Origin: Nitrospirota bacterium | GTDB taxonomy: Bacteria; Nitrospirota; Thermodesulfovibrionia; UBA6902; DSMQ01 | Assembly: GCA_016208965.1 (NCBI GenBank) | Contig: JACQXB010000037.1 | Location: 110-64,109 of the forward strand | Direction: 5' to 3' | Length of the DNA: 64,000 nucleotides | Shown: in pieces, positions 1,734-54,725 of the stretch | Layout of the letters: every line of letters starts with the position of its first letter | How positions within the stretch are numbered: the stretch's first letter is position 1 | The notes under the pieces: generated by a model | Told to the model about the DNA's origin: nothing | Database searches by the model: none | What the model saw: only the letters and a program-made list of their open reading frames with translations | Translations under genes and position numbers: made by a program

Positions 1734-2370
1734 GTGACGCGCCACGCCGATTACAGGAAGTGGCTGAGGTATTATCTGGATTTCCGGGGCAAATATTCGC
1801 TTTCTGATTCCAAATCAGAACAGGTGCGTTTGTTTGTCGAAAAATTGAAGAAAAAGAATCAGATGCCCGAACAGCAAAAGCAGGCAGCGCATGCAATCTC
1901 GCTCTTCTTTGAGTCGCAACTGCAAAAAAATTACAATGAAACCCCTCTTGTTAAAATCAATACTGACAAAAAATTAAAAGTAACATCCCCCTCCACCTTC
2001 AGGAATCATAACTCCCCCTATCCCCCTCTTATCTTAAGAGGGGGCGGCGAAGCCGGGGGCGTTACTATCAAGGGGGAATCTTCCAATGGCTTATCAAGGG
2101 CTGAGACAGCATTGCACTCATCATTACGGCCTTCAGTTGCATCTTCACCGAATAAGGCACGATTTAATGAATGGCGTTGTCTGGCTAAATCCGGTTTTTC
2201 GGCATGGGACAAGGTTATTGACACGCTGGCCGCAGAGATCAAGACGCGCCACTATTCCCGAAAAACGCTCAAGACATACGCGGACTGGAGCCGCAAGTTT
2301 CAGGGCTACCCACGCAACAAGCTCGCCTGACTCTGTGAGAGCGAGATCCCTGACATATTTACTGAGTTGA
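1734..2370 (+). pseudogene. Tyrosine recombinase (integron-integrase-like) N-terminal SAM-like domain remnant; catalytic domain absent
   Basis: ADYRKWLRYYLDF...QQKQAAHAISLFF and WDKVIDTLAAEIKTRHYSRKTLKTYADWSRKF resemble the N-terminal core-binding domains of IntI-type recombinases. The frame breaks near 2320-2330 (the LTYL motif continues in another frame). No R..HxxR..Y catalytic region follows. A proline/glycine palindromic element is inserted at 2013-2056. Confidence 0.45.
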
Positions 2371-2711
2371 TATGACTTTCCCCGTGATACGATTTTAGAG
2401 CCTGCCCACGACTCCAGTCGAACCACGTGAGATTCTGGAAATCTTTGAGTATCCGGTTGCTCATTTGGTAGATGATAACATGTTTGACTTGTTTCAACCA
2501 ATACTATTGATAGTCGAGATAAGAGGAAAATGTGAAGGCGATAGTTTAATCAAAATGGTTACCCCTCCCCTCAATCGTTCGTCGTGAGCTGATTTTCTAT
2601 CTCTATTTTTCGGAAAAATGCATCTCCTTGTCTTTTTATAAAGACATTGCTTATTATAAAAGCTAACAACGCATCATGGTTTTAATATCAACAGGAGTGG
2701 CAATATAACTC

Positions 2712-3461
2712 ATGTCAGGACATTCCAAATGGGCGCAGACAAAACACAAGAAGGCTGCTGTTGACTCAAAAAGAGGAAAACTTTTCTCAAAGGTCTCAAA
2801 AGAGATAATAGTTGCGGCTAAAATGGGAGGCGGCGACCCTAATTCTAATTCAAGATTAAGGAGCGCCATTGAAAAGGCAAGGGATATAAGCATGCCTTCT
2901 GAAAATATAAAAAAGGCAATAATGAGAGGCACAGGCGAGCTTCAGGGTGCATCTTACGAAGAGATTGTTTATGAAGGCTATGGTCCGGGTGGAGTTGCCA
3001 TAATGATGGAGGTATTTACTGATAATAAAAACAGGACTGTATCTGAGATACGCAATATCATGTCCAAATACGGTGGAAATATGGGAGAAACAGGCTGTGT
3101 CTCATGGATGTTTGACAAAAAAGGATATATACTCATTGGGAAAAAGCAAACCGATGAGGATACTTTAATGTCATTAACACTTGATGCAGGTGCAGAAGAC
3201 ATTAAAAATGACCCTGCTGAGGAAAACTACGAGGTTATCACTGCACCAGAGGACATGAAGGCAGTAAAAGAGGCTATTGAGAAGGCAGATATAAAGGTTA
3301 ACCTTGCGGAAATAACCATGCTTCCTAAAAACTACATAAGGCTTGAGTCATATGATGCGGATAAGATGCTTAAACTTATGGAAGCCCTTGAAGACCATGA
3401 TGACGTGCAGAATGTCTATGCAAATTTTGATATACCTGATGAGGTAATAGCTAATAGATAA
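2712..3461 (+). CDS. yebC: YebC/PmpR family DNA-binding transcriptional regulator
   Basis: Starts [27 protein letters not shown]; 249 aa; lies upstream of ruvC as in many bacteria. Confidence 0.95.
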
Positions 3462-3464
3462 ACT

Positions 3465-3498
3465 CTAAAGCTTATAGCTTATTAGCTTATAGCTTTAG
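3465..3498. terminator. Hairpin made of AGCT-heptamer words downstream of yebC
   Basis: ctaaagcttatagcttattagcttatagctttag folds with 8+4 bp stems around an internal loop. No clear T-tract. Confidence 0.4.
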
Positions 3499-3516
3499 GG
3501 CTTGAGGTTATAAAAG

Positions 3517-4038
3517 ATGCGTGTTTTGGGAATAGACCCGGGTACTATTTGTTGCGGTTATGGAATAGTGGCAATTCACAGCGAAGGTAGAAGTGGGAGC
3601 AAAGCTCCCATTCATATAGCCTCAGGCAAGATAAAGTTGAATAAAAACGATACACTCCCAGAACGGTTAAAGGCTCTCTATGATTCTCTTGAGGCTGTAA
3701 TTGCTGAATATAAGCCGTCGCGTATGTGCCTTGAGAAAATTTTTTACCATAAAAGCATTCGCTCTGCCTTTACACTTGGAGCAGCACGCGGTATAGTTAT
3801 GCTTTTGTCAGCAGAAAACGCTATACCAATTTTCGAGCATAATTCAACAGAACTAAAGCAGGCAATTACAGGATATGGAAGGGCAGAGAAACATCAGGTA
3901 GAAAGTATGATTAAACGAATTTTAAATATTAACTCCAAGCTATCGCCAGATGCAGCCGATGCCCTTGCACTGTGCGTTTGTCATATAAATTCATCCAGAT
4001 GGATGAAAGATGCAGGATACGAGATGCACGATAAATAA
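3517..4038 (+). CDS. ruvC: Crossover junction endodeoxyribonuclease RuvC
   Basis: N-terminus MRVLGIDPGT..GYG; conserved YGRAEKHQV and ADALALCVCH motifs; part of the ruvCAB cluster. Confidence 0.9.
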   Translation: MRVLGIDPGTICCGYGIVAIHSEGRSGSKAPIHIASGKIKLNKNDTLPERLKALYDSLEAVIAEYKPSRMCLEKIFYHKSIRSAFTLGAARGIVMLLSAENAIPIFEHNSTELKQAITGYGRAEKHQVESMIKRILNINSKLSPDAADALALCVCHINSSRWMKDAGYEMHDK

Positions 4039-4047
4039 ATTTCAAAA

Positions 4048-4135
4048 TTAGCATTTTAGCTTTTAGCTTTTAGCTCTTAGCTTTTAGCTCTTAGCTTATC
4101 GCTTATTAGCTTATTAGCTTATAGCTTATCGCTAT
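4048..4135. repeat. Tandem degenerate heptamer array (TTAGCTT/TTAGCTC/TTATCGC), about 12 units
   Basis: ttagcattttagcttttagcttttagctcttagcttttagctcttagcttatcgcttattagcttattagcttatagcttatcgctatt, read directly. Confidence 0.8.
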
Positions 4136-4162
4136 TATCATCGTGTATCTGTTTATTCGGAG

Positions 4163-4750
4163 GTGAATTTGATAGCCTCACTTAAAGGAAAAGTATTAAG
4201 CAAAAGCATGAATGGTATAATTATTGATGTAAGCGGTGTTGGCTACCATGTAAATGTCCCTCTTGGCAGTCTCTCTAATATCCCTGACAAAGGTGCAGAG
4301 ACTTTCCTTCATATTTATACTCATGTCAGAGAGGATGCAATACAGCTTTATGGATTTACCAAAGAAGAGGAAAAAAAGGTCTTTGTTACACTTCTTGGGA
4401 TTAACGGCATAGGGCCTAAGCTTGGACTTGCTATTCTTTCAGGTATGCCTGTGGAAAGATTTATGGGAGCTGTCTATAACGAAGATGTTTCATCTCTTAC
4501 CACAATCCCTGGTCTTGGCAAAAAGACAGCTTCAAGGCTTATACTTGAACTAAGAGAAAAACTCCCCAAGATGGTTTCTTATTCTAAGGAAGGCTCAACA
4601 GCAAATGATGCTGTCTCTGCACTTGTAAACCTCGGTTATAAAAGGTCACTATCCGAGGAGGCGGTTGAGTCTGCTGTAAAAAACGGGATGGAAACTATTG
4701 AAGATATAATAAAAGAGTCTTTAAAATATCTAACAAATTCTAACAAATAG
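4163..4750 (+). CDS. ruvA: Holliday junction DNA helicase subunit RuvA
   Basis: IASLKGKV start and the HhH motifs GINGIGPKLGLAIL and IPGLGKKTASRLILEL. A TTG at 4169, 5 nt after GGAGG, is a likelier start than the GTG at 4163. Confidence 0.9.
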   Translation: MNLIASLKGKVLSKSMNGIIIDVSGVGYHVNVPLGSLSNIPDKGAETFLHIYTHVREDAIQLYGFTKEEEKKVFVTLLGINGIGPKLGLAILSGMPVERFMGAVYNEDVSSLTTIPGLGKKTASRLILELREKLPKMVSYSKEGSTANDAVSALVNLGYKRSLSEEAVESAVKNGMETIEDIIKESLKYLTNSNK

Positions 4751-4785
4751 CTGATAGCTTATAGCTCATAGCTAATATATGATAT

Positions 4786-5802: not shown

Positions 5803-5804
5803 GC

Positions 5805-6398: not shown

Positions 6399-6401
6399 AA
6401 G

Positions 6402-7412: not shown

Positions 7413-7415
7413 GAG

Positions 7416-8423: not shown

Positions 8424-8476
8424 TTTAAGCTACTTATCCGAAAAATAGACATGGAATTATAAAACCGTTGATTTAT

Positions 8477-8632: not shown

Positions 8633-8659
8633 TAATAACGGTAGAGAAGGAGAACGTAG

Positions 8660-12339: not shown

Positions 12340-12342
12340 AAA

Positions 12343-17348: not shown

Positions 17349-17415
17349 CAAAGTTCATAAGAGTTTGTGTGAACTTTGCGGGTCAGGAACTTTGTGGGGT
17401 CATCAGGAACTTTGT

Positions 17416-17550
17416 GGGGTCAGACACCAAAATTGACATTTTACAAGATGATAAAACACACCCCTTAATCCCCTCTTGATAAAGGGGAAGTAATAACAAA
17501 GGCAGGTACATTATCCGAAGGGCAGAGGAAATTGAGATTGTGGAGGGAAA
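17416..17550. repeat. Island direct repeat, copy A (preceded by a 2x20-nt tandem ggtcaggaactttgtgg)
   Basis: The ~113-nt core ggggtcagacaccaaaattgacattttacaag...ggcaggtacattatccgaagggcagagg differs from copy C by 4 substitutions and a 1-nt indel (by eye). It ends gagattgagattgtggagggaaa. Confidence 0.85.
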
Positions 17551-17553
17551 TAA

Positions 17554-17604
17554 ATGAAACTCGATCAAATCGGCTTCTGGTCTGAAATCAAACTGGGGGA
17601 ATAA
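17554..17604 (+). pseudogene. 16-codon ORF MKLDQIGFWSEIKLGE, probable 5' stub of a lost gene
   Basis: It starts 7 nt after the GGAGGG of repeat copy A. The GxWSxxKL N-terminus resembles TcmP-type partner proteins from memory. It is stopped after 16 codons. Confidence 0.3.
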
Positions 17605-17690
17605 AAGGGGAGGTATATTTTCTGAAGGGAGATTGGGTTGGAAGATTAGAAAAAGCATAGACTGTGATATTATAGAATATAGAAATAAAA

Positions 17691-17897
17691 GTGAGGGGGT
17701 GGTTTAAAGTGGGCACTGCTACAGCAAAAAAAATAAATCCTGAAGATTTTATCCTCTCTGCGCTTTCTCCTGAGGACAGGCTTAACGCCGCTTTCAAAGT
17801 TGCAGGCGAGGCATTTAAAAAGACCACATTGACAATGAAAGACATTGATAAAGCAGCTAAAACTGTGAGGAGAAGAATCTACGGAAAAAAGAAGTAA
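17691..17897 (+). CDS. Putative antitoxin upstream of PIN toxin
   Basis: Small ORF ending 20 nt before the PIN ORF. The likely start is GTG 17709, after GAGGGGG. No recognisable family. Confidence 0.4.
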   Translation: MRGWFKVGTATAKKINPEDFILSALSPEDRLNAAFKVAGEAFKKTTLTMKDIDKAAKTVRRRIYGKKK

Positions 17898-17916
17898 GAT
17901 AGTTATTGATACAGGC

Positions 17917-18300
17917 GTGCTTGTTTCTGCCTTTGCCTTTGGCGGTGTGCCTGAGAAATCTGTCAGAAAGGCATTTAAAGAGGCAGACATATATGTATCC
18001 CCAGCCCTTCTTGAAGAGTATCGTGATACCCCGTTGGAACTTGAAACCGAGGGGAAGATAAGCCATATCCAGTTAAAGGCATTAATTTCCGGAATAGCCT
18101 CTTTTGTTGCAAACACAAGAATTGTTTATCCATCTGTAAAGTTATCACTCTGTAGAGATACCGACGATAATATGCTTCTTGAATGTTGCCATACAGCAAG
18201 AGCAAAGATTCTCATCACTGGCGATAAAGATCTTCTGGATATAAAGAATTTGCCTTTTGACCTTAAGATACTGACGCCACAAAAATATTTAGAAGAATAA
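17917..18300 (+). CDS. PIN-domain toxin (TIGR00305-like putative TA toxin)
   Basis: VIDTGVLVSAF..GG (first acidic motif, partly upstream of the called GTG), YVSPALLEEY, DTDDNMLLECC, ILITGDKDLL. Confidence 0.8.
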   Translation: MLVSAFAFGGVPEKSVRKAFKEADIYVSPALLEEYRDTPLELETEGKISHIQLKALISGIASFVANTRIVYPSVKLSLCRDTDDNMLLECCHTARAKILITGDKDLLDIKNLPFDLKILTPQKYLEE

Positions 18301-18340
18301 TACTTTCATGTGTTTTTCAAAAAAAGGAGCCTGGGATTAA

Positions 18341-18403
18341 ACAAAGGGGACAGGCAGATTATCTGAGAGAGCGGAGAGGAGATTGAGATTGTGGAGGGGA
18401 AAA
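18341..18403. repeat. Island direct repeat, partial copy B (3' module only)
   Basis: acaaaggggacaggcagattatctgagagagcggagaggagattgagattgtggaggggaaa aligns to the 3' third of copies A and C. Confidence 0.7.
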
Positions 18404-18440
18404 GGTAAACTTTAAGCAGGGCACTTAAGAAGGTGGAATA

Positions 18441-18746
18441 ATGGGCAGGACGAAGATAGAAATACCAGAGGAAAAAATAGCAGAATTTTGTAAAAGGAAT
18501 CATATCCTCAAGTTGTCACTTTTTGGTTCTGTTCTCCACGGCGATTTCAGGCCGGACAGCGATATTGATTTGCTTGTTGAATTTGATCCTGATCATATCC
18601 CGGGTTTCTTTAAGCTTGCTCATATGGAACGAGAACTTTCAGGGATTATGGGGAAAAAAGTAGATTTAAGAACACCTCACGAATTGAGTAAATATTTCCG
18701 TGATGATGTTCTCTCCGAAGCAGAGGTGCAGTATGCCGAAAGATGA
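18441..18746 (+). CDS. MNT-type nucleotidyltransferase antitoxin (MntA)
   Basis: [22 protein letters not shown] (GSx10-12DxD nucleotidyltransferase motif), ~100 aa. Confidence 0.85.
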
Positions 18747-18852
18747 CCTTGTTCGGATGCGCCACATCCTTGATGCTGCCAGAGAAGCGTTATCATTTAC
18801 GGCAGGGAAAACAAGAGTTGACCTGAATGCTAATCGTATGCTGGTGTTGTAA
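18733..18852 (+). pseudogene. HepT (DUF86/HEPN) toxin, 5' fragment only (39 codons)
   Basis: ATG overlaps the MNT stop by 14 nt. [22 protein letters not shown] is a typical DUF86 N-terminus. It stops at 18850-18852, 12 nt before repeat copy C. The RxxxxH HEPN motif is absent. Confidence 0.6.
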
Positions 18853-18864
18853 AAATGTAAAAAT

Positions 18865-19025
18865 GGGGTCAGGCACCAAAATTGACATTTCACAAGATGA
18901 TAAAACACACCCCTTAATCCCCTCTTGATAGAGGGGAAGTAATAACAAAGGCAGGTACATTATCTGAAGGGGCAGAGGGCAGGAGCCTGCCCGCGGTAGG
19001 CAGGAGATTGCGATTGTGGAGGGAA
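18865..19025. repeat. Island direct repeat, copy C (with a 25-nt GC-rich hairpin insertion)
   Basis: Same core as copy A. The extra gcaggagcctgcccgcggtaggcag precedes gagattgcgattgtggagggaaa. Confidence 0.85.
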
Positions 19026-26997: not shown

Positions 26998-28392
26998 TCA
27001 TTCTATTTTTAACCCTGCCCTTTTCTCATTAGCAACAATAACGAGGATGAATTTTTCATTGTTAAGATATTTTTTCGCTACCCTCAGAACATCATCCTTT
27101 GTCACTGCATTGATATAGGCAGGATATTTGTTTATATAATCAAGCCCCAGCTCATAATATTCCATGGCGACAAGAAAGCTTGCTATCTTTTTACCTGCCT
27201 CTATCTTCATAGGAAAACTACCTGTAAGGAACGCCTTTGCATCCTGTAGTTCCGCATCTGAGACCAGCGTCTCCCTTATTCGCTTTATCTCTTTTAATAT
27301 TTCATCTGTTGCCATACTGGCAGACTCATTCTTTGTCTGAATTCCTATTTGAAAGGAACCGTTCTCTTTCTTAGCCTCAAAAAAGCTATGTATATCATAG
27401 GTAAGTCCTTTTTCATCTCTCAGGTTTTGCATAAGCCTTGAGGCAAACCCTCCTCCACCTAAGATATAATTCATTACTGAGAGAGCGTAATAATCAGGGT
27501 TATCCCTGCTTATCCCCATATGTCCAAGTATAATATTTGCCTGAGTAATGTTTTTATCAATGCTTATGGTCTTTTTGTCTTTAAGGGGTTTTGGTTTCTC
27601 AACAGATGGTATTTTAAGTTCTTTTCCCTTCCATTTTGAAAAATATTTTTTAATCAGACTTGTTGCTTCTTCAGGTGTTATGTCGCCAACCACAGACATT
27701 ATTGCATTGTTAGGCACATAATAGGCTGAATGAAAATCCTTAAGGTATCTCTGGTTTATATGGTCTAATGTCCCGGACGTGCCCTCAATTAGTCTCCCAT
27801 ATGGGTGTAAGCCAAAGAGGGCTTCTTTAAATGCCTTTTGGGCGACAAAATCAGGGTTTTCCTCGTATGACCTAAGACTGCCTTTGATGCGCTCCCTTTT
27901 CTTATCAAGTTCTTCCTGAGGGAAAGATGGACTTATAATTATGTCTGAGAGGATATCAAATCCTAAGTCCAAATCCTTTTTTAGGATAGAAAGGCTAACA
28001 GTAATATAGTCATCCCCACCTGATGTATGAAGAGATGCCCCTACAAATTCTATCTCCTCGCTTATCTCAGTGGATGTTCTTTTTTTTGTGCCCTCAGGGA
28101 GGAGTTCTGCAGTTAGATTTGCAAGCCCTGCCTTTTCTGCCGGCTCAATCAAACTGCCTCCTTTAATCCCTACTGTAACCATGACAATGGGGAGATTATG
28201 CCTTTCTACCACCATAAGGGTAAGACCATTTTCAAGGACATCTCTTTTGATTTCAATGCCCGCATAGGCAGGACTGAAATTTAAAATTAAAAATGTAAAA
28301 TGTAAAATTAGGGTAAATAAAATTATTCTCCAAGATTTTGAATAACCACAGAGGCACTGAGACACAGAGTTTTTAATAAAATTAATATTCAT
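26998..28392 (-). CDS. M16 (pitrilysin) family peptidase, non-catalytic-type subunit
   Basis: M16 fold motifs but no HxxEH (GLANLTAELLPEGT in its place). The first ~45 residues are encoded by repeat DNA (28275-28369). Confidence 0.8.
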   Translation of the reverse strand: MNINFIKNSVSQCLCGYSKSWRIILFTLILHFTFLILNFSPAYAGIEIKRDVLENGLTLMVVERHNLPIVMVTVGIKGGSLIEPAEKAGLANLTAELLPEGTKKRTSTEISEEIEFVGASLHTSGGDDYITVSLSILKKDLDLGFDILSDIIISPSFPQEELDKKRERIKGSLRSYEENPDFVAQKAFKEALFGLHPYGRLIEGTSGTLDHINQRYLKDFHSAYYVPNNAIMSVVGDITPEEATSLIKKYFSKWKGKELKIPSVEKPKPLKDKKTISIDKNITQANIILGHMGISRDNPDYYALSVMNYILGGGGFASRLMQNLRDEKGLTYDIHSFFEAKKENGSFQIGIQTKNESASMATDEILKEIKRIRETLVSDAELQDAKAFLTGSFPMKIEAGKKIASFLVAMEYYELGLDYINKYPAYINAVTKDDVLRVAKKYLNNEKFILVIVANEKRAGLKIE

Positions 28393-33927: not shown

Positions 33928-34809
33928 ATGAGAACCCTTATTGAAAAGGCAAATATACTGGTTGAGGCACTGCCATACATAAGAAATTTTTATGGAAAAA
34001 CCTTTGTAATAAAATATGGCGGCGCAGCAATGGTAGACGAGAAGCTTAAATGTGCATTTGCGCAGGATGTGGTATTGCTAAATTTCATAGGGATAAAGTG
34101 CGTAATAGTGCATGGTGGCGGTCCAAAGATAAACAAGATTATGACAAAGATGGGGAAAAAACCTACATTTATTCAGGGGCAAAGATTTACTGATAAAGAA
34201 ACTGTAGATATTGTTGAGATGGTGCTTGGTGGGCTTATTAATAAAGAGATAGTCTCTTTATTAAATAGCCACGGGGGCAAAGCGATTGGATTAACTGGAA
34301 AAGATGGAGGCATTATAAAGGCCAAAAAGAAGGCGGTAAAGAGAATCTCTCCTGAAACTGGAACGGCTGAGCTCATAGACTTAGGTCTTGTTGGAGTGGT
34401 TAAGCAGGTCAACCCTGAGGTGTTGCTTTCTATTGAAAAAGATGGTTTTATCCCTGTGATTGCGCCTATAGGGAGTGGTGATAAGAATACCACCCTTAAT
34501 ATAAATGCTGACTCTGTAGCAGGTGCGGTTGCCTCTGCCCTGAAGGCAGAGAAACTAATACTCCTTACAGATGTAGAAGGCATAAGAGATGAAAATGGCA
34601 ACCTAATACAAACGTTAAATAAGAAAAAGATAAACTCCCTTATTTCCAGAGAGATAATCACAGGCGGAATGCTTCCAAAGGTTGCGGCATGCCTTAATGC
34701 AATTAGATGCGGGGTCAAGAAGACACATATAATAGATGGTCGCATTCCCCATGCCATTTTGCTTGAGATATTTACCAAGAAAGGTATAGGAACAGAGATA
34801 ACAAAGTGA
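33928..34809 (+). CDS. argB: Acetylglutamate kinase
   Basis: FVIKYGGAAM, VHGGGPKI, NINADSVAGAVA, LTDVEGI. Confidence 0.93.
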   Translation: MRTLIEKANILVEALPYIRNFYGKTFVIKYGGAAMVDEKLKCAFAQDVVLLNFIGIKCVIVHGGGPKINKIMTKMGKKPTFIQGQRFTDKETVDIVEMVLGGLINKEIVSLLNSHGGKAIGLTGKDGGIIKAKKKAVKRISPETGTAELIDLGLVGVVKQVNPEVLLSIEKDGFIPVIAPIGSGDKNTTLNINADSVAGAVASALKAEKLILLTDVEGIRDENGNLIQTLNKKKINSLISREIITGGMLPKVAACLNAIRCGVKKTHIIDGRIPHAILLEIFTKKGIGTEITK

Positions 34810-36647
34810 TGCAGCTTACAGAGAATGCAATTAGAGTTTTAAAGACCCGTTATCTCCTTAAAGATGAACAGGGCAACATCATAGAGACTCCGGAGGAGCT
34901 TTTCAGAAGGGTTGCAAGAACTGCTTCAGAGCCCGAAGTGCTTTATGGCGGAAACCCTCGTGAATGGGAGGAGAGATTCTATGAGCTCATGAACAATCTC
35001 CTTTTCCTTCCGAACACTCCTATGCTGATAAATGCTGGCAAGGAAATCGGACAGCTTGCTGCATGCTTTGTCCTTCCTGTGGATGATTCAATGAAAAGTA
35101 TTTTTGATTCACTGAAAAATGCCGCATTGATTCTCCAGAGCGGGGGAGGCACAGGCTTTTCCTTTTCAAGGTTAAGACCAAGGGCCGACCTTGTAAAATC
35201 AACAGGGGGGATAGCAAGTGGGCCTGTATCATTCATGAGGATATATAACACTGCAACAGAGGTCATTAAACAGGGAGGGGCAAGAAGGGGTGCAAATATG
35301 GGCATCCTGAGGATTGACCATCCTGACATAATTGAATTCATAAAGATCAAGAGAGATGAGAAGGAATTGACAAATTTCAATATCTCTGTTGCAGTAACAG
35401 ATGCCTTTATGGAGGCACTGAAGAAGAACACTGAGTATGACCTGATAAATCCCAGAAACAACCGTGTAACAGGACAACTCAATGCCCGTGATGTATTTAA
35501 AGAAATAGTTGAAAGCGCATGGGAAACAGGCGATCCAGGGCTTATATTCATTGACAGGATTAACAGAGACAACCCAACGCCCCATATCGGAGAGATAGAA
35601 AGCACAAACCCCTGCGGAGAACAACCACTTCTTTCTTTTGAGGCATGTGTTCTTGGGTCAATTAATTTATCGAGGATGGTGAAGCCTGATACAAGATTCA
35701 AGATTCAAGATTCAAGTAAAAAAAACGAACCCTCACTCAGTGCACAGAACACAGAGCACAGAACACAGATTAATCCCCCCTCACCCCCCTTTGCTAAAGG
35801 GGGGATGGGGGGATTTTCATACGAGATTGATTGGGAGCTTTTAGCTTCTGTTGTAAAGATTTCCGTTCGGTTTCTTGATAATGTCATAGATGCAAATAAC
35901 TACCCTGTGCCTGAGATAGAGAAGATGCATAAAGGGAATAGAAAAATCGGGCTTGGTGTTATGGGATGGGCTGATATACTTATAAAATTGGGCATCAGGT
36001 ATAACTCAAAAAAGGCATTTAACCTTGCCCGTCAGGCAATGAAATTCATAAGGGATAACGCAAGAGAAGCTTCCTTAGGGCTTGCGAGGGAACGTGGAAC
36101 ATTCCCGAATTTCAAGGGTTCTATTTATGACACACCTGAGTTTAATGCAAAAGGCGGACTACGGAATGCAACCACAACAACCATTGCACCAACAGGAACA
36201 CTCTCCATAATCGCAGGCTGTTCAAGTGGCATAGAGCCAATTTTTGCAATAGCTTACAAGAGACGTGTAATTGATACAACGCTTTATGAGATACATCCTT
36301 ATTTCTTAGAGGTTGCAAAAAACATGGGATTCTATAGTGCTGAACTTATTGAAAAAGTCTCTAAAAAAGGCTCATTAATAGGATTCAAAGAAGTCCCTTT
36401 AGACGTAAGAAGGCTATTTATAACTGCCCATGGGGTACCATTTAAAGACCACATAGAGGTTCAGTCAGCATTTCAGGAATTTACAGATAACGCAGTCTCA
36501 AAGACTATAAACCTAAAGCAGAGGACTACGAGAGATGATGTTGCAAAGGCATTCGTACTTGCCTATGAAAAAGGATGTAAGGGGATTACTGTTTTTAGAT
36601 ATGGCTCCAAGAGGGGTCCGTTGATAAAGTTTGAAGAAGGAGACTAA
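34806..36647 (+). CDS. nrdJ: Adenosylcobalamin-dependent (class II) ribonucleotide reductase, with a ~43-aa in-frame repeat-derived insertion
   Basis: VLKTRYL, LPNTPMLINAG, ACFVLPV, GGGTGFSFSRLRP, STNPCGEQPL, TIAPTGTLS, KTINL. Insertion at 35688-35818. Confidence 0.9.
   Translation: MMQLTENAIRVLKTRYLLKDEQGNIIETPEELFRRVARTASEPEVLYGGNPREWEERFYELMNNLLFLPNTPMLINAGKEIGQLAACFVLPVDDSMKSIFDSLKNAALILQSGGGTGFSFSRLRPRADLVKSTGGIASGPVSFMRIYNTATEVIKQGGARRGANMGILRIDHPDIIEFIKIKRDEKELTNFNISVAVTDAFMEALKKNTEYDLINPRNNRVTGQLNARDVFKEIVESAWETGDPGLIFIDRINRDNPTPHIGEIESTNPCGEQPLLSFEACVLGSINLSRMVKPDTRFKIQDSSKKNEPSLSAQNTEHRTQINPPSPPFAKGGMGGFSYEIDWELLASVVKISVRFLDNVIDANNYPVPEIEKMHKGNRKIGLGVMGWADILIKLGIRYNSKKAFNLARQAMKFIRDNAREASLGLARERGTFPNFKGSIYDTPEFNAKGGLRNATTTTIAPTGTLSIIAGCSSGIEPIFAIAYKRRVIDTTLYEIHPYFLEVAKNMGFYSAELIEKVSKKGSLIGFKEVPLDVRRLFITAHGVPFKDHIEVQSAFQEFTDNAVSKTINLKQRTTRDDVAKAFVLAYEKGCKGITVFRYGSKRGPLIKFEEGD
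35692..35815. repeat. Composite repeat inside nrdJ: (ATTCAAG)x3, (CACAGAR)x4, PPFxKGG palindrome
   Basis: caagattcaagattcaagattcaag (35692-35716); cacagaacacagagcacagaacacag (35743-35768); aatcccccctcacccccctttgctaaaggggggatggggggatt (35772-35815). Confidence 0.85.
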
Positions 36648-39539: not shown

Positions 39540-39637
39540 CAGTTAAAAGTTGAAAGTTATAAGTTTAAAGTTGTAAGGTAAGAAGTGTCGTAAATGTTTT
39601 TCATTTTTCCCTTTTCACTTTTAACTTTAAACTTTTG
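39540..39637. repeat. Long imperfect hairpin of AAGTNNN words between tRNA-Ser(GGA) and ffs
   Basis: agttaaaagttgaaagttataagtttaaagttgtaagg ... cccttttcacttttaactttaaactttt. Confidence 0.7.
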
Positions 39638-39643
39638 GAATAC

Positions 39644-39753
39644 GTCAGGCTCTTGGGCCCTGTGCGACAGGATGCTGTGAAATCCACCAGGTTCGGAAGA
39701 AAGCAACGGTAAGCAGTTCACCTGGGTGCCTCAGGAACACCTGAGGGCCTGAC
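39644..39753 (+). ncRNA. ffs: Signal recognition particle RNA (small bacterial 4.5S type)
   Basis: Closing helix gtcaggc...gcctgac. Conserved domain IV core caccaggttcGGAAgaaagcaacggtaagcag (compare E. coli ACCAGGUCCGGAAGGAAGCAGC). Position upstream of dnaX matches Bacillus. Confidence 0.8.
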
Positions 39754-39756
39754 TTT

Positions 39757-39859
39757 AAAAAAATGTAAAATGCAAAAATCAAAATGCAAAATTATGGAAG
39801 AAAAAATTTTAAAAAATAAACTCATTAATTTTTCATTTTTCATTTTTCATTTTGAATTT
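39757..39859. repeat. Imperfect hairpin of AAAATGC/AAAATGA words upstream of dnaX
   Basis: aaatgtaaaatgcaaaaatcaaaatgcaaaatt ... aatttttcatttttcatttttcattttgaattt. Confidence 0.7.
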
Positions 39860-39864
39860 ATCAT

Positions 39865-44495: not shown

Positions 44496-44531
44496 TAAGG
44501 AAATTTTTAAGAATCCCTATGCCAAAACCCA

Positions 44532-45683
44532 TTGAATACGCATGAATTTAAAAACATAAAAAAAATCCTTGTCATAAAACTCCGCCATATCGGGGATGTG
44601 CTTCTTAGTGTCCCTGTATTCAGGGCATTAAGGAAAAACTTCCCTGCCGCCCATATCTCTGCACTTGTAAATTCAGGAACAGAAGAGGTATTAACAGGCA
44701 ATCCACTCATTAATGAAATAATAGTCTTTGACAGAGGTATCAAAAAACTAAACTCCTTACAGAGATATTTAAAGGAGCTATCCTTCTTGAAAGTGATAAG
44801 AAAGGAAGGTTTTGATATGGCTGTTGATCTTACAAGTGGAGACAGGGCAGCAATCATATCTTTTATATCAGGGGCGAGATACAGGCTTGCATATGACCCA
44901 TGTGGGGCTGGTTTTTTAGGGAAAAGATTTTTATATACACACCTTGCTCAAAAAAACGAAAGCCAGCATATGGTATTGCAAAATCTTGATGTTGTTAGAC
45001 AGTTTGGTATTAGCACAGAAAATCTTATGGTGGATTTTTTTATTCCTGATGAAGCAAAGATGTTTGTAAAAAGAATTTTTGAGGAAAATAATATAAATCC
45101 CCCCTCACCCCCCTTTGACAAAGGGGGGCTGGGGGGATTTAGCGACAAAGTCGTCCATGTGCATCCAACATCACGATGGCTTTTTAAATGCTGGAAAGAT
45201 GAGCATATGGCAGAGGTGATAAGTTGGCTTATTGAGCAGGGAATAAAAGTCATAGTAACCTCAGCACCTAATAAAAGAGAGGTAGAAAAAGCAAAAAAGA
45301 TTTTATCTTTGGTCAGCTATCAGCTATCAGCTATCAGCTATCAGCTATCAGCTATCAGCTATCAGCTTATTGACCTGTGCGGTAAAACCACAATTAAACA
45401 GCTTGCTGCAATCTCAGAGGCATCTGACTTGTTTTTGGGGGTTGATTCAGCACCTATGCATATAGCCGCTGCAGTGGGAACTCCTGTCATTGCCCTTTTT
45501 GGCATGACAGATGAAAAGCTGTGGGGACCGTGGGGTGATAAACACCTTGTGATTAAGGAAAGGTTAAAGTGCATGCCCTGCCAGAAGGGTAATTGTGAAG
45601 GTCTCTCTCTGCGCGAATGCATGGAGGCTATAAAACCTGATACTGTTAAAAATATAATTAAAGAGAAAATAAGCAATGCATAG
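44532..45683 (+). CDS. Glycosyltransferase family 9 (LPS heptosyltransferase-like) with two in-frame repeat insertions
   Basis: ILVIKLRHIGDVLLSVPVFRALRKNFP, GVDSAPMHIAAAVGTPVIALFG. Insertions INPPSPPFDKGGLGGFS (45096-45140) and SYQLSAISYQLSAISYQL (45314-45369). Confidence 0.85.
   Translation: MNTHEFKNIKKILVIKLRHIGDVLLSVPVFRALRKNFPAAHISALVNSGTEEVLTGNPLINEIIVFDRGIKKLNSLQRYLKELSFLKVIRKEGFDMAVDLTSGDRAAIISFISGARYRLAYDPCGAGFLGKRFLYTHLAQKNESQHMVLQNLDVVRQFGISTENLMVDFFIPDEAKMFVKRIFEENNINPPSPPFDKGGLGGFSDKVVHVHPTSRWLFKCWKDEHMAEVISWLIEQGIKVIVTSAPNKREVEKAKKILSLVSYQLSAISYQLSAISYQLIDLCGKTTIKQLAAISEASDLFLGVDSAPMHIAAAVGTPVIALFGMTDEKLWGPWGDKHLVIKERLKCMPCQKGNCEGLSLRECMEAIKPDTVKNIIKEKISNA
45314..45369. repeat. 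Perfect heptamer tandem repeat (CAGCTAT)x7 plus a partial unit, in frame within the GT9 gene
   Basis: cagctatcagctatcagctatcagctatcagctatcagctatcagctatcagctta. The 7-nt DNA period gives a 7-aa peptide period (SYQLSAI). Confidence 0.95.
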
Positions 45684-47807: not shown

Positions 47808-48056
47808 TGAAACTGCTGATGATTTCTAATACAGACAAACCTTTTATCCTGAATGTTGGAAGGCTTACAAGGCAGAAAGGACAATGACATTTAATTCGGG
47901 CATTCAATCATGTTGCCATGTAAATTAGTTATAATAGGGCAGGGCAATTTAGAAGGATATTTAAAGAGGCGGGTAAAAAACCTGAATATAAAAGAAGATG
48001 TCTTATTTTTTGGATGGCAGAAAAATCCTTTAAAATACATGTTTCGCTGTAGATAA
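47807..48056 (+). pseudogene. Glycosyltransferase family 4 remnant (internal deletion, stop and frameshifts)
   Basis: MKLLMISNTDKPFILNVGRLTRQKGQ* followed, in other frames, by LIRAF and KLVIIGQGNLEGYLKRRVKNLNIKEDVLFFGWQKNPLKYM. These are GT4 C-domain motifs without the rest of the protein. Confidence 0.7.
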
Positions 48057-48111
48057 AATAGTTAACCAATATATAAATATATTTTATTCTCTGAAAGAAG
48101 GTAAATATTAA

Positions 48112-51227: not shown

Positions 51228-51788
51228 TTAATGTTTTATGCCGGCACTCCCGGCAACCTTAAAAATAGTCAACCACAATATTTTAATATCAAAAAAAAAT
51301 GACCTGTGCTTCATATAATATTCATCAAAATCAACTTTGACCGGAACCGGAATATCATCCCGGCCATTTATCTGCGCCCATCCGGTAAGGCCTGGAATGA
51401 GTTTGTATACTCCCTTTTTTGTCCTAAGCTCTATTAAATCATCCTGATTAAACAAGGCAGGTCTTGGCCCAACAAAACTCATATCACCTTTAAATATGCT
51501 AATAAGTTGCGGCAGTTCATCCATGCTTGATTTGCGCAAAAACTTCCCAATGGGTGTTAGATGTTGGTCTGGGTTGGATAACAAATGAGTCGCTACGGCC
51601 ATGGTATCAATATTCATTGTCCGAAACTTCGGCATTTTAAAGACAATATTATTTTTTCCAATCCTATCCGACCAATACAATACCGGCCCTTTGGAGGTCA
51701 GATTCACCAGCAATGCAATAATCAGCATAGGAATGCTGGATATAATAAGTAGAAACAAAGACATTGTAAAATCGAATAATCTTTTCAC
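51228..51788 (-). CDS. Undecaprenyl-phosphate sugar phosphotransferase (bacterial sugar transferase family, PglC-like)
   Basis: KRLFDF start, one TM segment, PKFRTM, DELPQLISIFKGDMSFVGPRP. Confidence 0.9.
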   Translation of the reverse strand: MKRLFDFTMSLFLLIISSIPMLIIALLVNLTSKGPVLYWSDRIGKNNIVFKMPKFRTMNIDTMAVATHLLSNPDQHLTPIGKFLRKSSMDELPQLISIFKGDMSFVGPRPALFNQDDLIELRTKKGVYKLIPGLTGWAQINGRDDIPVPVKVDFDEYYMKHRSFFFDIKILWLTIFKVAGSAGIKH

Positions 51789-51896
51789 CTGAAAATACCC
51801 CTCAATTCGTCATTCCATCGGGGAATGACATTTTCATTGTCTTTTGTGTCTCTTTAAGACATGAATGTTTCAGGCTAAAAGGGGACGCAACCCTTT

Positions 51897-53066
51897 TTAC
51901 GCCTCAAGACTCTGCAGCCAGGTGCCAGCCTTTTTGACATGGATGCCGTCGAGAAACAGCTCCCTTTTCAGATTTTTTACAAGAAGAATAGGTTTTGTTT
52001 CTTTTACAAAAAAGCCGAAAAAATGTTTAAGAAAGGCTATCTCCGTATCCGCCAGTTTGGTCTCTATAAGCCATTCCGCCCTCCCATCCCGCACCGTCAG
52101 AAAATCTACCTCCCTTTTTTCCTTATCCCTCACGTAATGAAGCGCACACTTCTCCCCTGCTGTATCCTCAAGAAAATGGAGCCGCTTCAGAAGAGCGCAG
52201 GCAACAGCATTCTCAAACCTTGCCCCTTCATCTTCCTTCACAAAACCCGTATCATAAAAATAGACTTTAGGCTGCTTGATCAGACCCCTGGCGATGTTGC
52301 GGCAATAGGGCGTTACCACAAAAAGAATGTAAAGGCCTTCCAGCATGCCTATCCACTGTTTTACCGTATGAGGAGACACCTGCAAATCCCGGGCCAGGGA
52401 TTCATAGGAAATCGTGCTGCCAACGGAATTGCGGAGCAATTCCACCAGGGTTTCCATGCTTCTGAGGTTCCTGACCGATGCAATATCCAGCAAATCTTCG
52501 CGCAGGATGCGGTCGACATGGGAGCGCCGCCAACGTTTGGCATCCTTCTCGCTCCCTTTAAGAAACGGCTCAGGAAATCCCCCAAACCTCATGATATGTT
52601 CAAGAGCCGCATCAGCCGTATACTTTTCTTTGACCTCAGCCACGGAAAAGGGATGTAAACGGTAGGAATAAAATCTGCCCGCCAGTGAATCCCCCCCCTT
52701 TCGGTAGACATCAAGGCGGGATGATCCTGTTACAAGAAGGCGCGGCCTCACCCCTTCAGTATCATAAATTCCTTTAATCCAGTTCTTCCATTTTCTTACC
52801 TTATGAAGTTCGTCAAATATCACCAGGTCGCAATCACGGCGCCATGCCTGTTTTTGGATAAGTAGGCGATGCTCCACACTGTCCATATTAAAATATTCAG
52901 AGCTACCAGGATAAAGCGCTTTAGCCAAAGTTGTTTTGCCCACCTGGCGGGGGCCACTCAAAAGGACCATCTTTTGATCGAGGTCTGTCTTTATCCTATC
53001 CTCAACACCGCGATTCATACAGACTATTTTGCATGAAACTACATAAAAGTCAAGACCAAAATGCAA
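51897..53066 (-). CDS. AAA-family ATPase with DUF4143-like C-terminus
   Basis: Walker A GPRQVGKTT, Walker B LVIFDELH. Likely start MNRGVEDRI (16 codons in). Visibly more GC-rich than flanking genes. Confidence 0.75.
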   Translation of the reverse strand: MHFGLDFYVVSCKIVCMNRGVEDRIKTDLDQKMVLLSGPRQVGKTTLAKALYPGSSEYFNMDSVEHRLLIQKQAWRRDCDLVIFDELHKVRKWKNWIKGIYDTEGVRPRLLVTGSSRLDVYRKGGDSLAGRFYSYRLHPFSVAEVKEKYTADAALEHIMRFGGFPEPFLKGSEKDAKRWRRSHVDRILREDLLDIASVRNLRSMETLVELLRNSVGSTISYESLARDLQVSPHTVKQWIGMLEGLYILFVVTPYCRNIARGLIKQPKVYFYDTGFVKEDEGARFENAVACALLKRLHFLEDTAGEKCALHYVRDKEKREVDFLTVRDGRAEWLIETKLADTEIAFLKHFFGFFVKETKPILLVKNLKRELFLDGIHVKKAGTWLQSLEA

Positions 53067-53153
53067 TATGCTGCATAATGGCTATAGGAGGCTGCGCCTC
53101 CTATGGAAGCCAGCCATGTCCGGAATCTCCCCATCCAGTTCCCCATGAATTTC

Positions 53154-53511
53154 TTATGAATCGGACTTCATCTCCATCGAATTCAACATTGCCAATATCT
53201 TCTCATATTCAGAATCAAGAGATTCAAAAACTACTTCATCAATATATTTGCAAGCCAGACAGAATTTCAACCATGTCTGAGTTTTAGAGGCTTCTTGCAT
53301 AGCGTCGGTCAGCTTATTTTTAAAAACGGCGGGATATCTTCTCTTCCTCCATCCTTCCACAAACCGAACGTGATGAACGCCTGATTTGATCCATAAGTGA
53401 ATATCTTTCTTCTGGTGGAAAGTTTTTCGTAATCTCAAAAATTTTCATCGCACAATCAAACGCCAGTTTATAAACCTCCAAATCCCTTACGCTCTTTATC
53501 CTATCGCCCAT
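53154..53511 (-). pseudogene. Four-helix-bundle protein (23S rRNA intervening-sequence protein family), frameshifted
   Basis: The N-part VRDLEVYKLAFDCAMKIFEITKNFPPEERYSLMDQIRRSSRSV (53320-53511) and the C-part FKNKLTDAMQEASKTQTWLKFCLACKYID (53154-53438) are in different frames, overlapping near 53330-53440. Confidence 0.65.
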
Positions 53512-53588
53512 CTTCCCATCTTCCTAACCTCTTCTTCATGCCCCTCTGTATAATCTGAAATCAGGATAGTCAGGAAGCCATCCCAACA

Positions 53589-54560
53589 TCAAATATTCTT
53601 TTCATTTGACATGAACCAGTCAGCTGTCATTCTAAGCCCCTGCTCCATTGTGTAAGGCGGAGTCCAGTTTAACTCTCTGCGTATTTTATCGCTGTCAATC
53701 TGTAAAGAGCCTGTTAATCGCTCAATCTCATCACTTTTGCCGGTAACTTTTCCTATCATTTTCAAGAGAGACGCCGGACAGGGGAACAATCTCGCTTTTT
53801 TTCCCATTGCCCCGGCTATCATCCTTATTAAATCAGGCGTAGAAACATCCTCACCATCACTCACTAAAAATGTCTGATTAGCGGCAGCCGGATGCTCAAT
53901 ACACCTTATTATTGCATCTACAAGATTGCCTATATAAATCATGCTTCTCTTATTATTTACCAAAGATAGAGGCAAAGGGATATCTTTATTTACTATATCA
54001 AGCAAACGCAGGAAATTTGCTTTAACTCCTGGACCATAAACTAATGGTAGTCTGAAGATAACTATTTCCATGCCGGTATTCTCAGCAATTTTATGCAGTA
54101 CCTGCTCTGCCTCCCATTTACTAACACCGTAAGGGCCTTTCGGTGCCGGGATATCGTGTTCAGTAAAGGTTTTTTCGCAACCATCCCCGTTGACCTTGAC
54201 GGAACTTATATATACAAAGCGTTTTACACCATTGGTTACTGCCATCCTTGCCAGCCGTTTAGTTCCGGCTACATTAACCTTCCTAAATTCTGCAAAAGGG
54301 TCGGAAGTGTTTTCATTCATAACATGGACAAGTGCTGCCAAGTGGACAACGGAATCCACTCCAGCCAGTGTATCTGACCAATCGGTATCAGTCACAATTG
54401 ATTCTATCTTTATTATCTCAATGCCTACCGACAAACTATCTACCTGTTTTGTTGAACGAATAACACCTCGTACTTGCCACCCTTCAAGCAGTAATCTAGC
54501 ACAAACTGCCCGACCAATAAACCCATTAGCTCCTGTTATTAAAATATTATTTGCCATCAC
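53589..54560 (-). CDS. NAD-dependent sugar epimerase/dehydratase (SDR family)
   Basis: ILITGANGFIGRAV, YGVSKWEAE (YxxxK). Confidence 0.88.
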   Translation of the reverse strand: MMANNILITGANGFIGRAVCARLLLEGWQVRGVIRSTKQVDSLSVGIEIIKIESIVTDTDWSDTLAGVDSVVHLAALVHVMNENTSDPFAEFRKVNVAGTKRLARMAVTNGVKRFVYISSVKVNGDGCEKTFTEHDIPAPKGPYGVSKWEAEQVLHKIAENTGMEIVIFRLPLVYGPGVKANFLRLLDIVNKDIPLPLSLVNNKRSMIYIGNLVDAIIRCIEHPAAANQTFLVSDGEDVSTPDLIRMIAGAMGKKARLFPCPASLLKMIGKVTGKSDEIERLTGSLQIDSDKIRRELNWTPPYTMEQGLRMTADWFMSNEKNI

Positions 54561-54612
54561 ATCTGTCCAAAATAAATTTTCAAAAAATAAAAAAATGATA
54601 CTGTTACTAATA

Positions 54613-54725
54613 CTTCCCCCCTTTGTAAAAGGGGGGCGAGGGGGGATTTTATGGATAAATGCTTCTGCTTAGAGTTTTTTTATTTATAAAAATCTCCCCT
54701 CGCCCTCTTTGCTAAAGAGGGGAAC
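54613..54725. repeat. Two partial PPFxKGG-type palindromic elements
   Basis: cttcccccctttgtaaaaggggggcgaggggggatttt (54613-50) and aaaatctcccctcgccctctttgctaaagaggggaac (54688-725). Confidence 0.75.

Follow-up and report, generated by a model that had tools for sequence, protein, structure and literature searches.

The GC-rich palindrome that recurs in the window, which means here the whole stretch of 64,000 nucleotides analysed, belongs to a genuine dispersed family, the arms, loop stem and AAT/ATT ends of which are conserved, and is more than a low-complexity run of C and G. It is probably a very small non-autonomous selfish hairpin repeat, which resembles the REPINs and the Rickettsia palindromic elements (RPE) and is tied to a cassette that encodes a DUF559 nuclease. 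The link to this cassette, the flipping of copies in place and the spread across phyla are new beyond the preliminary description of this DNA.

The architecture of the element is simple. A perfect full copy comprises 44 nt (AAT-C6-TCA-C6TTT-NNN-AAAG6-AT-G6-ATT), and the full hairpins, built of C6/G6 runs, range from 44 to 48 nt. An outer stem, (AAAT)C6:G6(ATTT), encloses an inner one, C6TTT:AAAG6, the junction being an asymmetric internal loop of 3/2 nt. Structure prediction gives a nested hairpin of -21 kcal/mol (z = -4.6), and -20.7 kcal/mol for the inverted doublet. The 10-nt ends are terminal inverted repeats, AAATCCCCCC / GGGGGGATTT, conserved in the source genome and in other phyla. The core hairpin pattern yielded 7 strand matches in the window, as compared to 0.04 expected from shuffles, and the same pattern read backwards had no match across 301 genomes. 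The preliminary description had named a similarity limited to C/G runs as a finding that would speak against a family. This was not observed: the AAT/ATT flanks, which lay outside the search pattern, recur in other phyla. The family is known as solo full elements, as half elements, as inverted doublets and as inverted halves that bound a DUF559 gene. Head-to-head inverted doublets number at least seven in the source genome, e.g., at C3:15598-15672 and C37:41695-41769. A transposition intermediate or a defined target was not found for the element.

The DUF559 proteins form a large family of Vsr-like PD-(D/E)XK nucleases, to which no function has been assigned. We know of no DUF559 protein that has been shown to cut hairpins. 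In the cassette, inverted half elements surround a gene of ~120 codons for such a protein. One locus (L064) displays the order element-DUF559-element, with the downstream element beginning within the stop codon. Among the 80 DUF559 homologues taken from metagenomes, a half element abuts the start in 53 of 70 and the stop in 48 of 67, and half elements are seen on both sides in 37 of the 59 that had both flanks available. In the source genome, the end of contig C42 carries the 3' end of a DUF559 gene with a half element 9 nt further on (G000:C42:46580-46618), and an internally deleted DUF559 gene lies between two halves at C37:28516-28738. Element halves and DUF559 genes are, thus, physically linked. 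At the level of entire genomes, as far as incomplete metagenome bins show it, their co-occurrence is loose. Only 2 of 116 loci picked for a perfect element adjoin a DUF559 gene; in the element-bearing relatives G001, G002 and G004, which are incomplete bins, no DUF559 gene was found; G003 has 11 DUF559 matches and only 3 perfect elements. A published classification (PMC3424549) puts DUF559 together with Vsr and a homing endonuclease of a group I intron. The titles and abstracts of the papers surveyed that mention DUF559 make no connection to repeats, and we found no published family of DUF559 cassettes bounded by hairpin repeats.

All seven stretches that had been listed for the window are there, yet they are not seven copies of one family. 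Two are perfect full elements; the rest are split, with at least three structural classes in all. Both perfect copies lie in frame within genes, as had been claimed. The one at 35772..35815 (+ strand; AATC6-TCA-C6TTT-GCT-AAAG6-AT-G6ATT, which reads NPPSPPFAKGGMGGF) is inserted in sense, with AAT as a codon, in nrdJ (34806..36647, + strand), the gene of a B12-dependent ribonucleotide reductase of 613 aa (Pfam PF02867, PF00317). Alignment with relatives reveals an insert at residues ~292-340 that is composed of two heptamer arrays (35688-35716 and 35738-35769) and the hairpin element. The element is missing from the nrdJ of most relatives; its site is a 5-residue loop (residues 344-348) in the T. 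maritima NrdJ structure 1XJE. The other perfect copy (45096..45139, + strand; NPPSPPFDKGGLGGF) resides in a heptosyltransferase III-like gene of glycosyltransferase family 9 (GT9; 44532..45683, + strand; Pfam PF01075), in which TRF also detected an in-frame heptamer array (45313-45367). The insertion site comprises 15 codons in the source genome versus 2 in four relatives, and 28 of 120 homologues contain an element-derived peptide there, in varied frames, orientations and states of decay. The AF2 model, with a pLDDT of 90 as a whole, places the insert between helix 173-185 and strand 207-211 as a low-confidence coil (mean pLDDT 54, residues 191-200).

The remaining stretches differ from the perfect ones and from each other. 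The pair at 54613-54725, described before as two half elements, is indeed intergenic, but its left member is a three-quarter copy (54613..54650, - strand; on the + strand C6TTTGTAAAAG6, CGA and the G arm, GGGGGGATTTT). The right member is a true half of the CTCCCC subfamily, C arm plus hairpin (54689..54723, + strand; AAAATCTCCCC-TCG-CCCTCTTTGCTAAAGAGGGG). The two are separated by 38 nt and, judged from their arrangement, appear to be the inverted ends of a DUF559-type cassette (54613-54723) that has lost its gene. The left-end architecture also occurs upstream of DUF559 genes and remnants, and the right-end type recurs both after the DUF559 stop codon on C42 and at the C37 remnant mentioned above. 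The copy at 2013..2056 (+ strand; AACTC5-TAT-C5TCTTATCTTAAGAG5-...-G5CGTT; CCCCCTCTTA..TAAGAGGGGG) is a two-tier hairpin and lies, as claimed, in frame within an ORF, which bears a phage-integrase SAM-like domain. It represents a divergent subfamily and scores too low for the 6C model at the nhmmer threshold used; a similar hairpin follows a DUF559 gene, 70 nt downstream, in the relative G013. Finally, the 6-bp hairpins at 17459-17490 and 18906-18937 sit inside two copies of a 108-nt direct repeat, 1449 nt apart (17415..17522, with CCCCTCTTGATAAAGGGG, and 18864..18971, both + strand, 96% identical). There is a hairpin in each repeat, but they go back to one duplication of 108 nt instead of two insertions, and they are only putative family members. 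The segment between the repeats contains ORFs with PIN and nucleotidyltransferase domains.

A scan of the 1.67 Mb source genome with a profile model, as the preliminary description had proposed, disclosed ~126 element loci (nhmmer, E < 1e-3). Full copies reside in ORFs of at least 200 aa in 44 of 55 cases, perfect ones in 19 of 21 (90%), versus 65% for a random position (p = 0.008). Full copies are enriched in genes, beyond mere survival there. The host ORFs are real genes with housekeeping roles: 29 of the 30 checked have Pfam families (27 of 28 scanned, plus nrdJ and the GT9 gene), and they include PurL, IleS, TopA, HemC, AroC, HisF, MnmE and LpxK. CTCCCC-type halves and doublets are the only extragenic forms, while full copies are 80-90% intragenic; a 49-nt 5C variant is located intergenically or close to gene ends.

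Comparison of orthologues documents how the copies behave. The epimerase gene shows a clean gain of 15 codons versus G012, and a 93-nt composite that is common to three unrelated genes (LpxK, GNAT, CxxCxxCC) is absent in all relatives examined. Some sites are empty, some copies are flipped in place and others have decayed. Where orthologous sites have opposite orientation, the loop triplet is reverse-complemented exactly or with one mismatch. Copies have been gained since the divergence from the relatives, and they invert in place and decay. The element has also spread across phyla. Of the 301 Nitrospirota genomes sampled, 44 contain it. More than 116 loci were found in Nitrospirota, Nitrospinota, Methylomirabilota, Desulfobacterota, Dehalococcoidia, anammox bacteria and Pseudomonadota, and at these loci the unconstrained AAT/ATT flanks are conserved.

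A perfect old copy and the enrichment in genes could, however, mean that the hairpin itself is functional. It would then be a nucleic-acid signal under selection, with a host-protein binding site, transcription pause or attenuation, mRNA stability and a replication or recombination signal as candidates; a coding-compatible form would let it work inside genes, and the DUF559 gene would be just another location. A copy common to G000 and G012 fits this explanation: it is identical in 44 of 45 nt and in 14 of 15 third codon positions, whereas only 57% of the third positions match in its flanks (binomial p ~0.003 for the contrast). Synonymous sites next to this copy are near saturation. Also in line with a signal are the residence of full copies in ORFs, the arms that stay identical across phyla despite a genomic GC content from 39% to 69%, and the intergenic halves, which resemble intrinsic terminators in their GC-rich stem with ATTTT behind it and are often located right after stop codons. 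Most full copies, though, are within ORFs, and a terminator within essential genes would be harmful. The copies occupy unrelated loops of unrelated genes, their presence, orientation and frame vary between close relatives, many of them are visibly decaying, the distribution in the phylum is patchy, and Rfam contains no match to the element. We therefore consider a functional signal unlikely.

Alternatively, the element might be an ordinary REP/REPIN mobilised by a RAYT (Y1 HUH), or a MITE that depends on a DDE transposase in trans, with DUF559 as an incidental neighbour. Its half elements do form REPIN-like inverted doublets, its 10-nt ends form inverted repeats like those of MITEs, and the lack of a target-site duplication (no direct-repeat signal above shuffled expectation for offsets 0-6 and lengths 2-4) would be compatible with HUH-type single-strand transposition. 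Y1_Tnp genes are found in the source genome and in 13 of 13 element-bearing relatives, but equally in 11 of 18 relatives without perfect elements. Moreover, the element is missing from the flanks of all three Y1 genes of the source genome (C10:100448, C24:5749-6615 and one on C43); the gene on C24 has repeats of another kind, the GACCCC type, on its sides. A GTAG-type REP head is lacking, and a non-exhaustive search of DDE transposase families revealed no IS with matching ends. The only type of gene seen between the halves is that of the DUF559 nuclease, most homologues of which have halves on either side. A RAYT or a DDE transposase as the driving force is, in consequence, quite improbable.

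The hairpin had been described as stop-free whichever way it inserts, and this had been offered to explain its survival in genes. Of the six frames, three are reliably open (in 21, 21 and 18 of the 21 perfect copies); the other three are mostly closed: whether they contain a stop varies with loop and spacer, and just 7, 4 and 3 copies are free of one. The absence of stops contributes to survival, but the unit length counts as much, and the full copies do not just survive but are enriched. The inserted unit, as seen at the clearest empty site, is 15 codons (45 nt), and an element in frame makes up a Pro/Gly loop of 15 residues. Judged from the intact frames, in-ORF copies would be translated as such loops in real genes; with a 15-codon unit that reads stop-free as Pro/Gly in three frames, copies in surface loops may therefore be translated and tolerated. 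That the peptide N-P-P-x-P-P-F/L-x-K-G-G-x-G-G-F itself is selected, as a surface loop, an interaction motif or a poly-proline pause that aids folding, is very hard to believe: the inserts are located in inter-domain loops and the source genome favours one frame (NPPSPPFxKGGMGGF is the reading of 14 of the 19 perfect copies in ORFs; AAT-aligned frames over-used, p = 0.007), but other phyla use the three open frames about equally (16, 17, 10) and obtain different peptides, orthologous sites change from one peptide to another, conservation is at the nucleotide level, synonymous positions included, and the same DNA also occurs intergenically and at cassette ends.

If the element is a selfish hairpin repeat, as we prefer to think, the DUF559 protein is its likely cognate enzyme. 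The nuclease would recognise the hairpin, whose mismatch-like internal loop a Vsr-type enzyme could plausibly target, and the breaks it induces, together with host repair or copy-choice, would spread or homogenise the repeats. The inserted peptides would have no function of their own. A broader proposal can only be made tentatively: DUF559 proteins may be the cognate nucleases of two-tier GC hairpin repeats across bacteria, as RAYTs are for REPINs, with the 6C subfamily adapted to coding sequence and nuclease-triggered repair writing and maintaining loops in essential genes. On this proposal, such repair would also account for the in-place flips and for copies that are nucleotide-perfect over order-level divergence.

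If all this is true, selfish DNA in coding genes is no longer a curiosity of Rickettsia but comprises an ultra-small element widespread in several environmental phyla, and the large DUF559 family would get its first concrete, testable role, that of a hairpin-specific nuclease driving its own repeats. Annotation is affected by Pro/Gly-rich inserts of 15-31 residues in enzymes such as NrdJ, PurL, IleS and TopA. The inserts are also a natural experiment on the extent of loop insertion that essential enzymes tolerate. Metagenome assemblies may break at such hairpin repeats: several copies are no more than ~2 kb away from the end of a contig, and C42 stops within its DUF559 gene.

Known systems share some of these traits. 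With MITEs, the element has the terminal inverted repeats in common, but neither a target-site duplication nor a parent transposase IS with the same ends was found, DDE families being searched non-exhaustively. The small dispersed repeats (SDR) of heterocyst-forming cyanobacteria are mobile, span tens of bases and have hairpin potential. Like the element here, they can be intragenic and are accompanied by heptamer tandem repeats; sequences and hosts differ, and the resemblance is a tentative one. The double-hairpin elements of fungal mitochondria and the mobile GC clusters of yeast mitochondria may be likened to the element together. The yeast clusters (PMC4478555) are palindromes rich in GC, 30-50 bp long, against an AT-rich genomic background; they move without a known transposase and are sometimes intragenic, yet they belong to another domain of life, are unrelated in sequence and have no associated nuclease cassette. 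Homing endonuclease genes of the Vsr/DUF559 fold (PMC3424549) likewise are small selfish nuclease genes amid relatives of their presumed recognition site. The cassette here, in contrast, has no intron or intein, its gene-less repeats are vastly commoner than the gene, and homing is only presumed.

Two further parallels were named at the outset. RPE (Ogata et al. 2000) are also palindromic repeats in frame in many unrelated housekeeping genes, translated as extra surface segments, with no transposase identified. They are restricted to Rickettsia and fall into ten sequence families of ~100-150 bp, the size quoted in PMC10969869, whereas the element here has 44-48 nt, C6/G6 runs, hosts in several phyla and, between the halves, DUF559 as the gene of a candidate enzyme. 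Its size and its hosts in Nitrospirota and other phyla rule out membership in the RPE families. REP/REPIN-RAYT systems (REPtrons; Bertels and Rainey 2011, PMC3116915) also consist of short non-autonomous hairpin repeats, single or paired as inverted doublets, with a small gene for a DNA-cutting enzyme between inverted copies. REPs, however, are extragenic by definition and flank a RAYT, while the full form here is mostly intragenic and lacks the GTAG head. The inverted doublet is shared; the gene between the halves is a PD-(D/E)XK nuclease of the DUF559 family instead of a Y1 HUH transposase.

From AAT to ATT the element measures 44 nt. Alignment of the perfect copies genome-wide yields the oriented consensus (A)AAT-CCCCCC-TCA-CCCCCCTTT-NNN-AAAGGGGGG-AT-GGGGGG-ATT(T); since the two spacers are unequal (3 nt versus 2 nt), every copy can be assigned an orientation. 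The predicted fold of the single-stranded DNA is a nested hairpin whose internal loop is 3/2 (-21.1 kcal/mol, z = -4.6). The AAT and ATT ends lie outside the search pattern and are almost invariant in 147 perfect copies from the host genome and other phyla; the position beyond them is biased towards A or T. Across these 147 copies, complementarity past AAT/ATT and the next position is not in excess of expectation, and a direct-repeat signal of target-site duplication is absent from the flanks at every offset tested. An Rfam search of the window returned tRNAs and SRP RNA only; the element matches no known RNA family. Nor did literature searches find a published account of the element, its sequence or its peptides.

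The preliminary description had counted seven copies of one family in the window. All seven are present as sequence stretches, and the core hairpin pattern finds seven matches over both strands, with 0.04 expected from shuffles. As members of a single family, however, only part of them qualify: two are perfect full elements, and the remainder are cassette ends, a divergent variant and one duplication. The perfect copies reside in frame, with AAT as a codon, in nrdJ, which encodes a B12-dependent ribonucleotide reductase (35772-35815), and in the gene of a heptosyltransferase of glycosyltransferase family 9, GT9 (45096-45139). Two partial forms are intergenic, an inner hairpin with G arm (54613-54650) and a C arm with hairpin of the related CTCCCC subfamily (54689-54723). 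The divergent variant (2013-2056), in an integrase-like ORF, is outside the reach of our nhmmer model. The small hairpins at 17459 and 18906 lie within two copies of one 108-nt direct repeat (17415-18971; 96% identical, 1449 nt apart), between which ORFs with PIN and nucleotidyltransferase domains are found. They stand for one duplication of a small hairpin rather than for two insertions. The 108-nt repeat also holds a promoter-like TTGACA motif, and 20-nt tandem repeats are located directly upstream of it (17371-17423).

The Nitrospirota draft genome that holds the window at C27:110-64109 (G000; 1.67 Mb, 50 contigs, 39.5% GC) was scanned with an nhmmer model of 21 perfect copies. At E < 1e-3 it revealed 126 loci, 55 full and 71 partial. 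A copy was scored as residing in a gene if a stop-free frame of at least 200 amino acids ran through it with at least 30 amino acids on either side. This applies to 19 of the 21 perfect and 44 of the 55 full copies, compared to 65% of random positions (binomial p = 0.008 and 0.011, respectively). Full copies are therefore enriched in genes, beyond mere tolerance. CTCCCC-type halves and head-to-head doublets are intergenic, frequently right behind stop codons.

The ORFs that host the element are real genes: Pfam families with alignments spanning the insert were found for 27 of 28 ORFs scanned, and nrdJ and the GT9 gene are two further cases. PurL, IleS, TopA, HemC, AroC, HisF, MnmE, LpxK, MoeA, AcrB, a copper ATPase and a NuoG-like protein are among the hosts. 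In NrdJ the insert stands where the Thermotoga maritima structure 1XJE has a loop of 5 residues (344-348). In the AlphaFold2 model of GT9 (pLDDT 90.3, pTM 0.89) it is a low-confidence, unstructured segment between helix 173-185 and strand 207-211. Orientation showed no significant bias, neither with respect to local GC skew (Fisher p = 0.10) nor to the host gene (23 sense, 12 antisense, p = 0.09).

That the element is free of stops whichever way it inserts, as proposed earlier, is correct for half of the frames. Among the 21 perfect copies, the sense and the antisense frame with AAT as a codon are open in all 21, and the sense frame shifted by one base in 18. The other three are mostly closed, being open in just 7, 4 and 3 copies; their openness hinges on the loop triplet or on a spacer other than TCA, which reads TGA on the opposite strand. 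The perfect in-ORF copies of G000 use the three open frames 14, 3 and 2 times (sense phase 0, antisense phase 0, sense +1); phase 0 is thus over-used compared with an equal chance for every open frame (p = 0.007). At the loci in other phyla the corresponding counts are 16, 17 and 10 (p = 0.11), so that the bias is a local one of G000, and it is probably due to certain copies having been amplified recently. The length of the unit is as important as the lack of stops. At the cleanest empty site, an epimerase gene (contig C17:4232) compared with its counterpart in the relative G012, the gain is exactly 15 codons; a 49-nt variant, 5C, is intergenic or close to gene ends.

Gain of the element is lineage-specific. 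Five relatives were searched with the flanks of 18 of 33 insertion sites, and 17 sites could be aligned; insert-free in relatives are the N-terminal site of purL, the epimerase gene, lpxK, a GNAT gene, a CxxCxxCC gene, a hisC-like gene and others. A 93-nt composite, in which a 45-nt left module that itself contains a small palindrome is followed by the element and TCA, is common to three unrelated genes (lpxK, GNAT and CxxCxxCC) and absent from all relatives examined. It is the strongest evidence of copy-and-paste between genes. Inserts of this kind, about 93 nt or 31 codons long, are located in unrelated G000 genes at C17:63220-63320, C37:85610-85710, C47:53960-54070 and C10:64870-64970; besides the three hosts mentioned, a metallophosphoesterase gene provides a looser match. 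The left module contains a palindrome such as ATGCAACACATGTGTTGCAT and encodes ...RDTKDNEN, and the 45-nt hairpin unit comes next; the modules appear to be 15-codon units.

The element also flips. At several sites it is turned round in orthologues, with a loop triplet that is the reverse complement or differs from it by one mismatch: GAC versus GTC in moeA, GAT versus GTC in an acyl-CoA ligase gene, and GCC versus AGC in a Type ISP-like gene. In-place inversion between the inverted arms explains such pairs better than independent insertion does. At one radical-SAM site the frame of the element is not the same among relatives. Decay is seen in the GT9 family, where a peptide derived from the element is found at the same position in 28 of 120 homologues, be it full, flipped, frame-shifted, shortened or decayed; among the other homologues are some with an empty site. 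This position is either a hot spot or the site of an old insertion. A search for near-identical GT9 alleles that might display the insertion boundaries at the nucleotide level found none, the closest homologue being 74% identical. G000 and G012, members of two families within one order, have a copy in common that matches at 44 of 45 nt and at 14 of 15 third codon positions, compared to a 57% third-position match at conserved residues of its flanks (binomial estimate p ~ 0.003). Either nucleotide-level constraint on the hairpin or homogenisation by conversion from other copies accounts for this near-perfect identity.

An exact pattern scan over one genome per species detected the element in at least 116 stretches, on contigs of 38% to 69% GC. 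Among the matches listed are Nitrospirota, Nitrospinota, Methylomirabilota, Desulfobacterota and other "delta" lineages, Dehalococcoidia, an anammox planctomycete, Pseudomonadota and others. Within Nitrospirota the distribution is patchy: perfect copies occur in 44 of 301 sampled genomes and 30 of 122 genera, and the reversed-pattern control gave 0 matches in the same 301 genomes. G000, which is among the smallest genomes sampled, has the most (24). Patchiness combined with identity across phyla points to horizontal spread.

Period-7 tandem arrays are a further feature of the window. At least 12 are present (stretches 3469-4777, 28277-28309, 35688-35769, 39541-39864, 45313-45367, 62281-62310 and 63834-63866), some of them in frame inside genes, and they resemble the STRR heptamers of cyanobacteria. 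In nrdJ, four units of GATTCAA and four of CACAGAA are read in frame directly upstream of the hairpin element; in the GT9 gene, 7.9 units of TCAGCTA encode SYQLSAI repeats. The arrays frequently adjoin the element, and in several genes ...HRTQNTE is followed by NPPSPPF. The NrdJ loop after NPCGEQ...GSINLS is hypervariable across the order (relatives' nrdJ loci L001-L012): depending on the relative, it contains heptamer-coded peptides, another palindromic element (PPFNSPLTKGG) or nothing, and the peptide QNTEHRTQ recurs in three lineages.

As to the enzyme, a RAYT or IS200 mobiliser was considered and rejected. G000 and 13 of 13 element-bearing relatives have Y1_Tnp genes, yet so do 11 of 18 relatives without perfect elements, and none of the three in G000 is element-flanked. 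One of them, a 289-residue RAYT-like gene within C24:5600-6824, has short repeats of the GACCCC/GGGGTC type on either side (GGTCATGGGGTC..., and GACCCCTTTTCTGTACCTT twice), which are probably its own REP family, separate from the C6/G6 element.

The element is linked to genes of DUF559, a domain of the PD-(D/E)XK superfamily that is grouped there with Vsr and a homing endonuclease of a group I intron (PMC3424549); in Caulobacter, a DUF559 protein acts as a Vsr-like endonuclease and triggers the SOS response (PMC12907096). The titles and abstracts of the DUF559 papers searched mention no connection to repeats. The sole Pfam DUF559 match in G000 is the 3' end of a gene truncated by the end of contig C42, with a CTCCCC half element 9 nt downstream of the gene end (C42:46580-46743). 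An internally deleted DUF559 gene lies between a three-quarter element of the C6/G6 type and a CTCCCC half (C37:28516-28738). Several further elements are situated some 2 kb or less from a contig end (C19:157, C25:200, C15:340, C37:1076 and C41:1746), which, together with the end of C42 in its DUF559 gene, suggests that these repeats break the assembly. An intact DUF559 gene between two C6/G6 elements is found on a 405-kb Desulfomonilaceae contig (L064), and its downstream element begins inside the stop codon. In relatives, two-tier hairpins of other stem sequences flank the DUF559 genes.

Metagenomes supplied 80 proteins homologous to that of L064 (44-68% identity). An element half abuts the start in 53 of the 70 with enough upstream sequence, the stop in 48 of 67, and both ends in 37 of 59. 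In this cassette layout the G and C arms are gene-proximal, the hairpins distal. The window pair at 54613-54723 has exactly the same end architecture with 38 nt where the gene would be, and is a gene-less mini-cassette. Together with its left flank (aaaaatgatactgttactaatactt) it is found twice in G000, in the window at 54580-54760 (C27) and at C10:90660-90800; therefore, either the locus was duplicated or the unit takes in flanking sequence. A DUF559 gene adjoins just 2 of 116 solo-element loci, and co-occurrence of element and DUF559 per genome is loose across bins that are incomplete. The solo full element (C arm-hairpin-G arm) is a permutation, not a truncation, of the cassette ends (hairpin-G arm ... 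C arm-hairpin).

In mechanistic terms, the DUF559 protein may recognise the hairpin, whose mismatch-like internal loop would be an attractive target for a nuclease. The resulting breaks, followed by repair or copy-choice, could spread and homogenise the copies, and the inserted peptides would be mere passengers.

We class the family with REPINs and RPEs, as selfish hairpin repeats. Its in-gene lifestyle is that of the Rickettsia RPEs (PMC10969869). With REPIN/RAYT systems it shares hairpin repeats found both singly and as inverted doublets, a small DNA-enzyme gene bounded by inverted repeats, and numerous non-autonomous copies. Unlike in REPIN/RAYT, however, the enzyme of the element cassettes has a Vsr-like nuclease fold.
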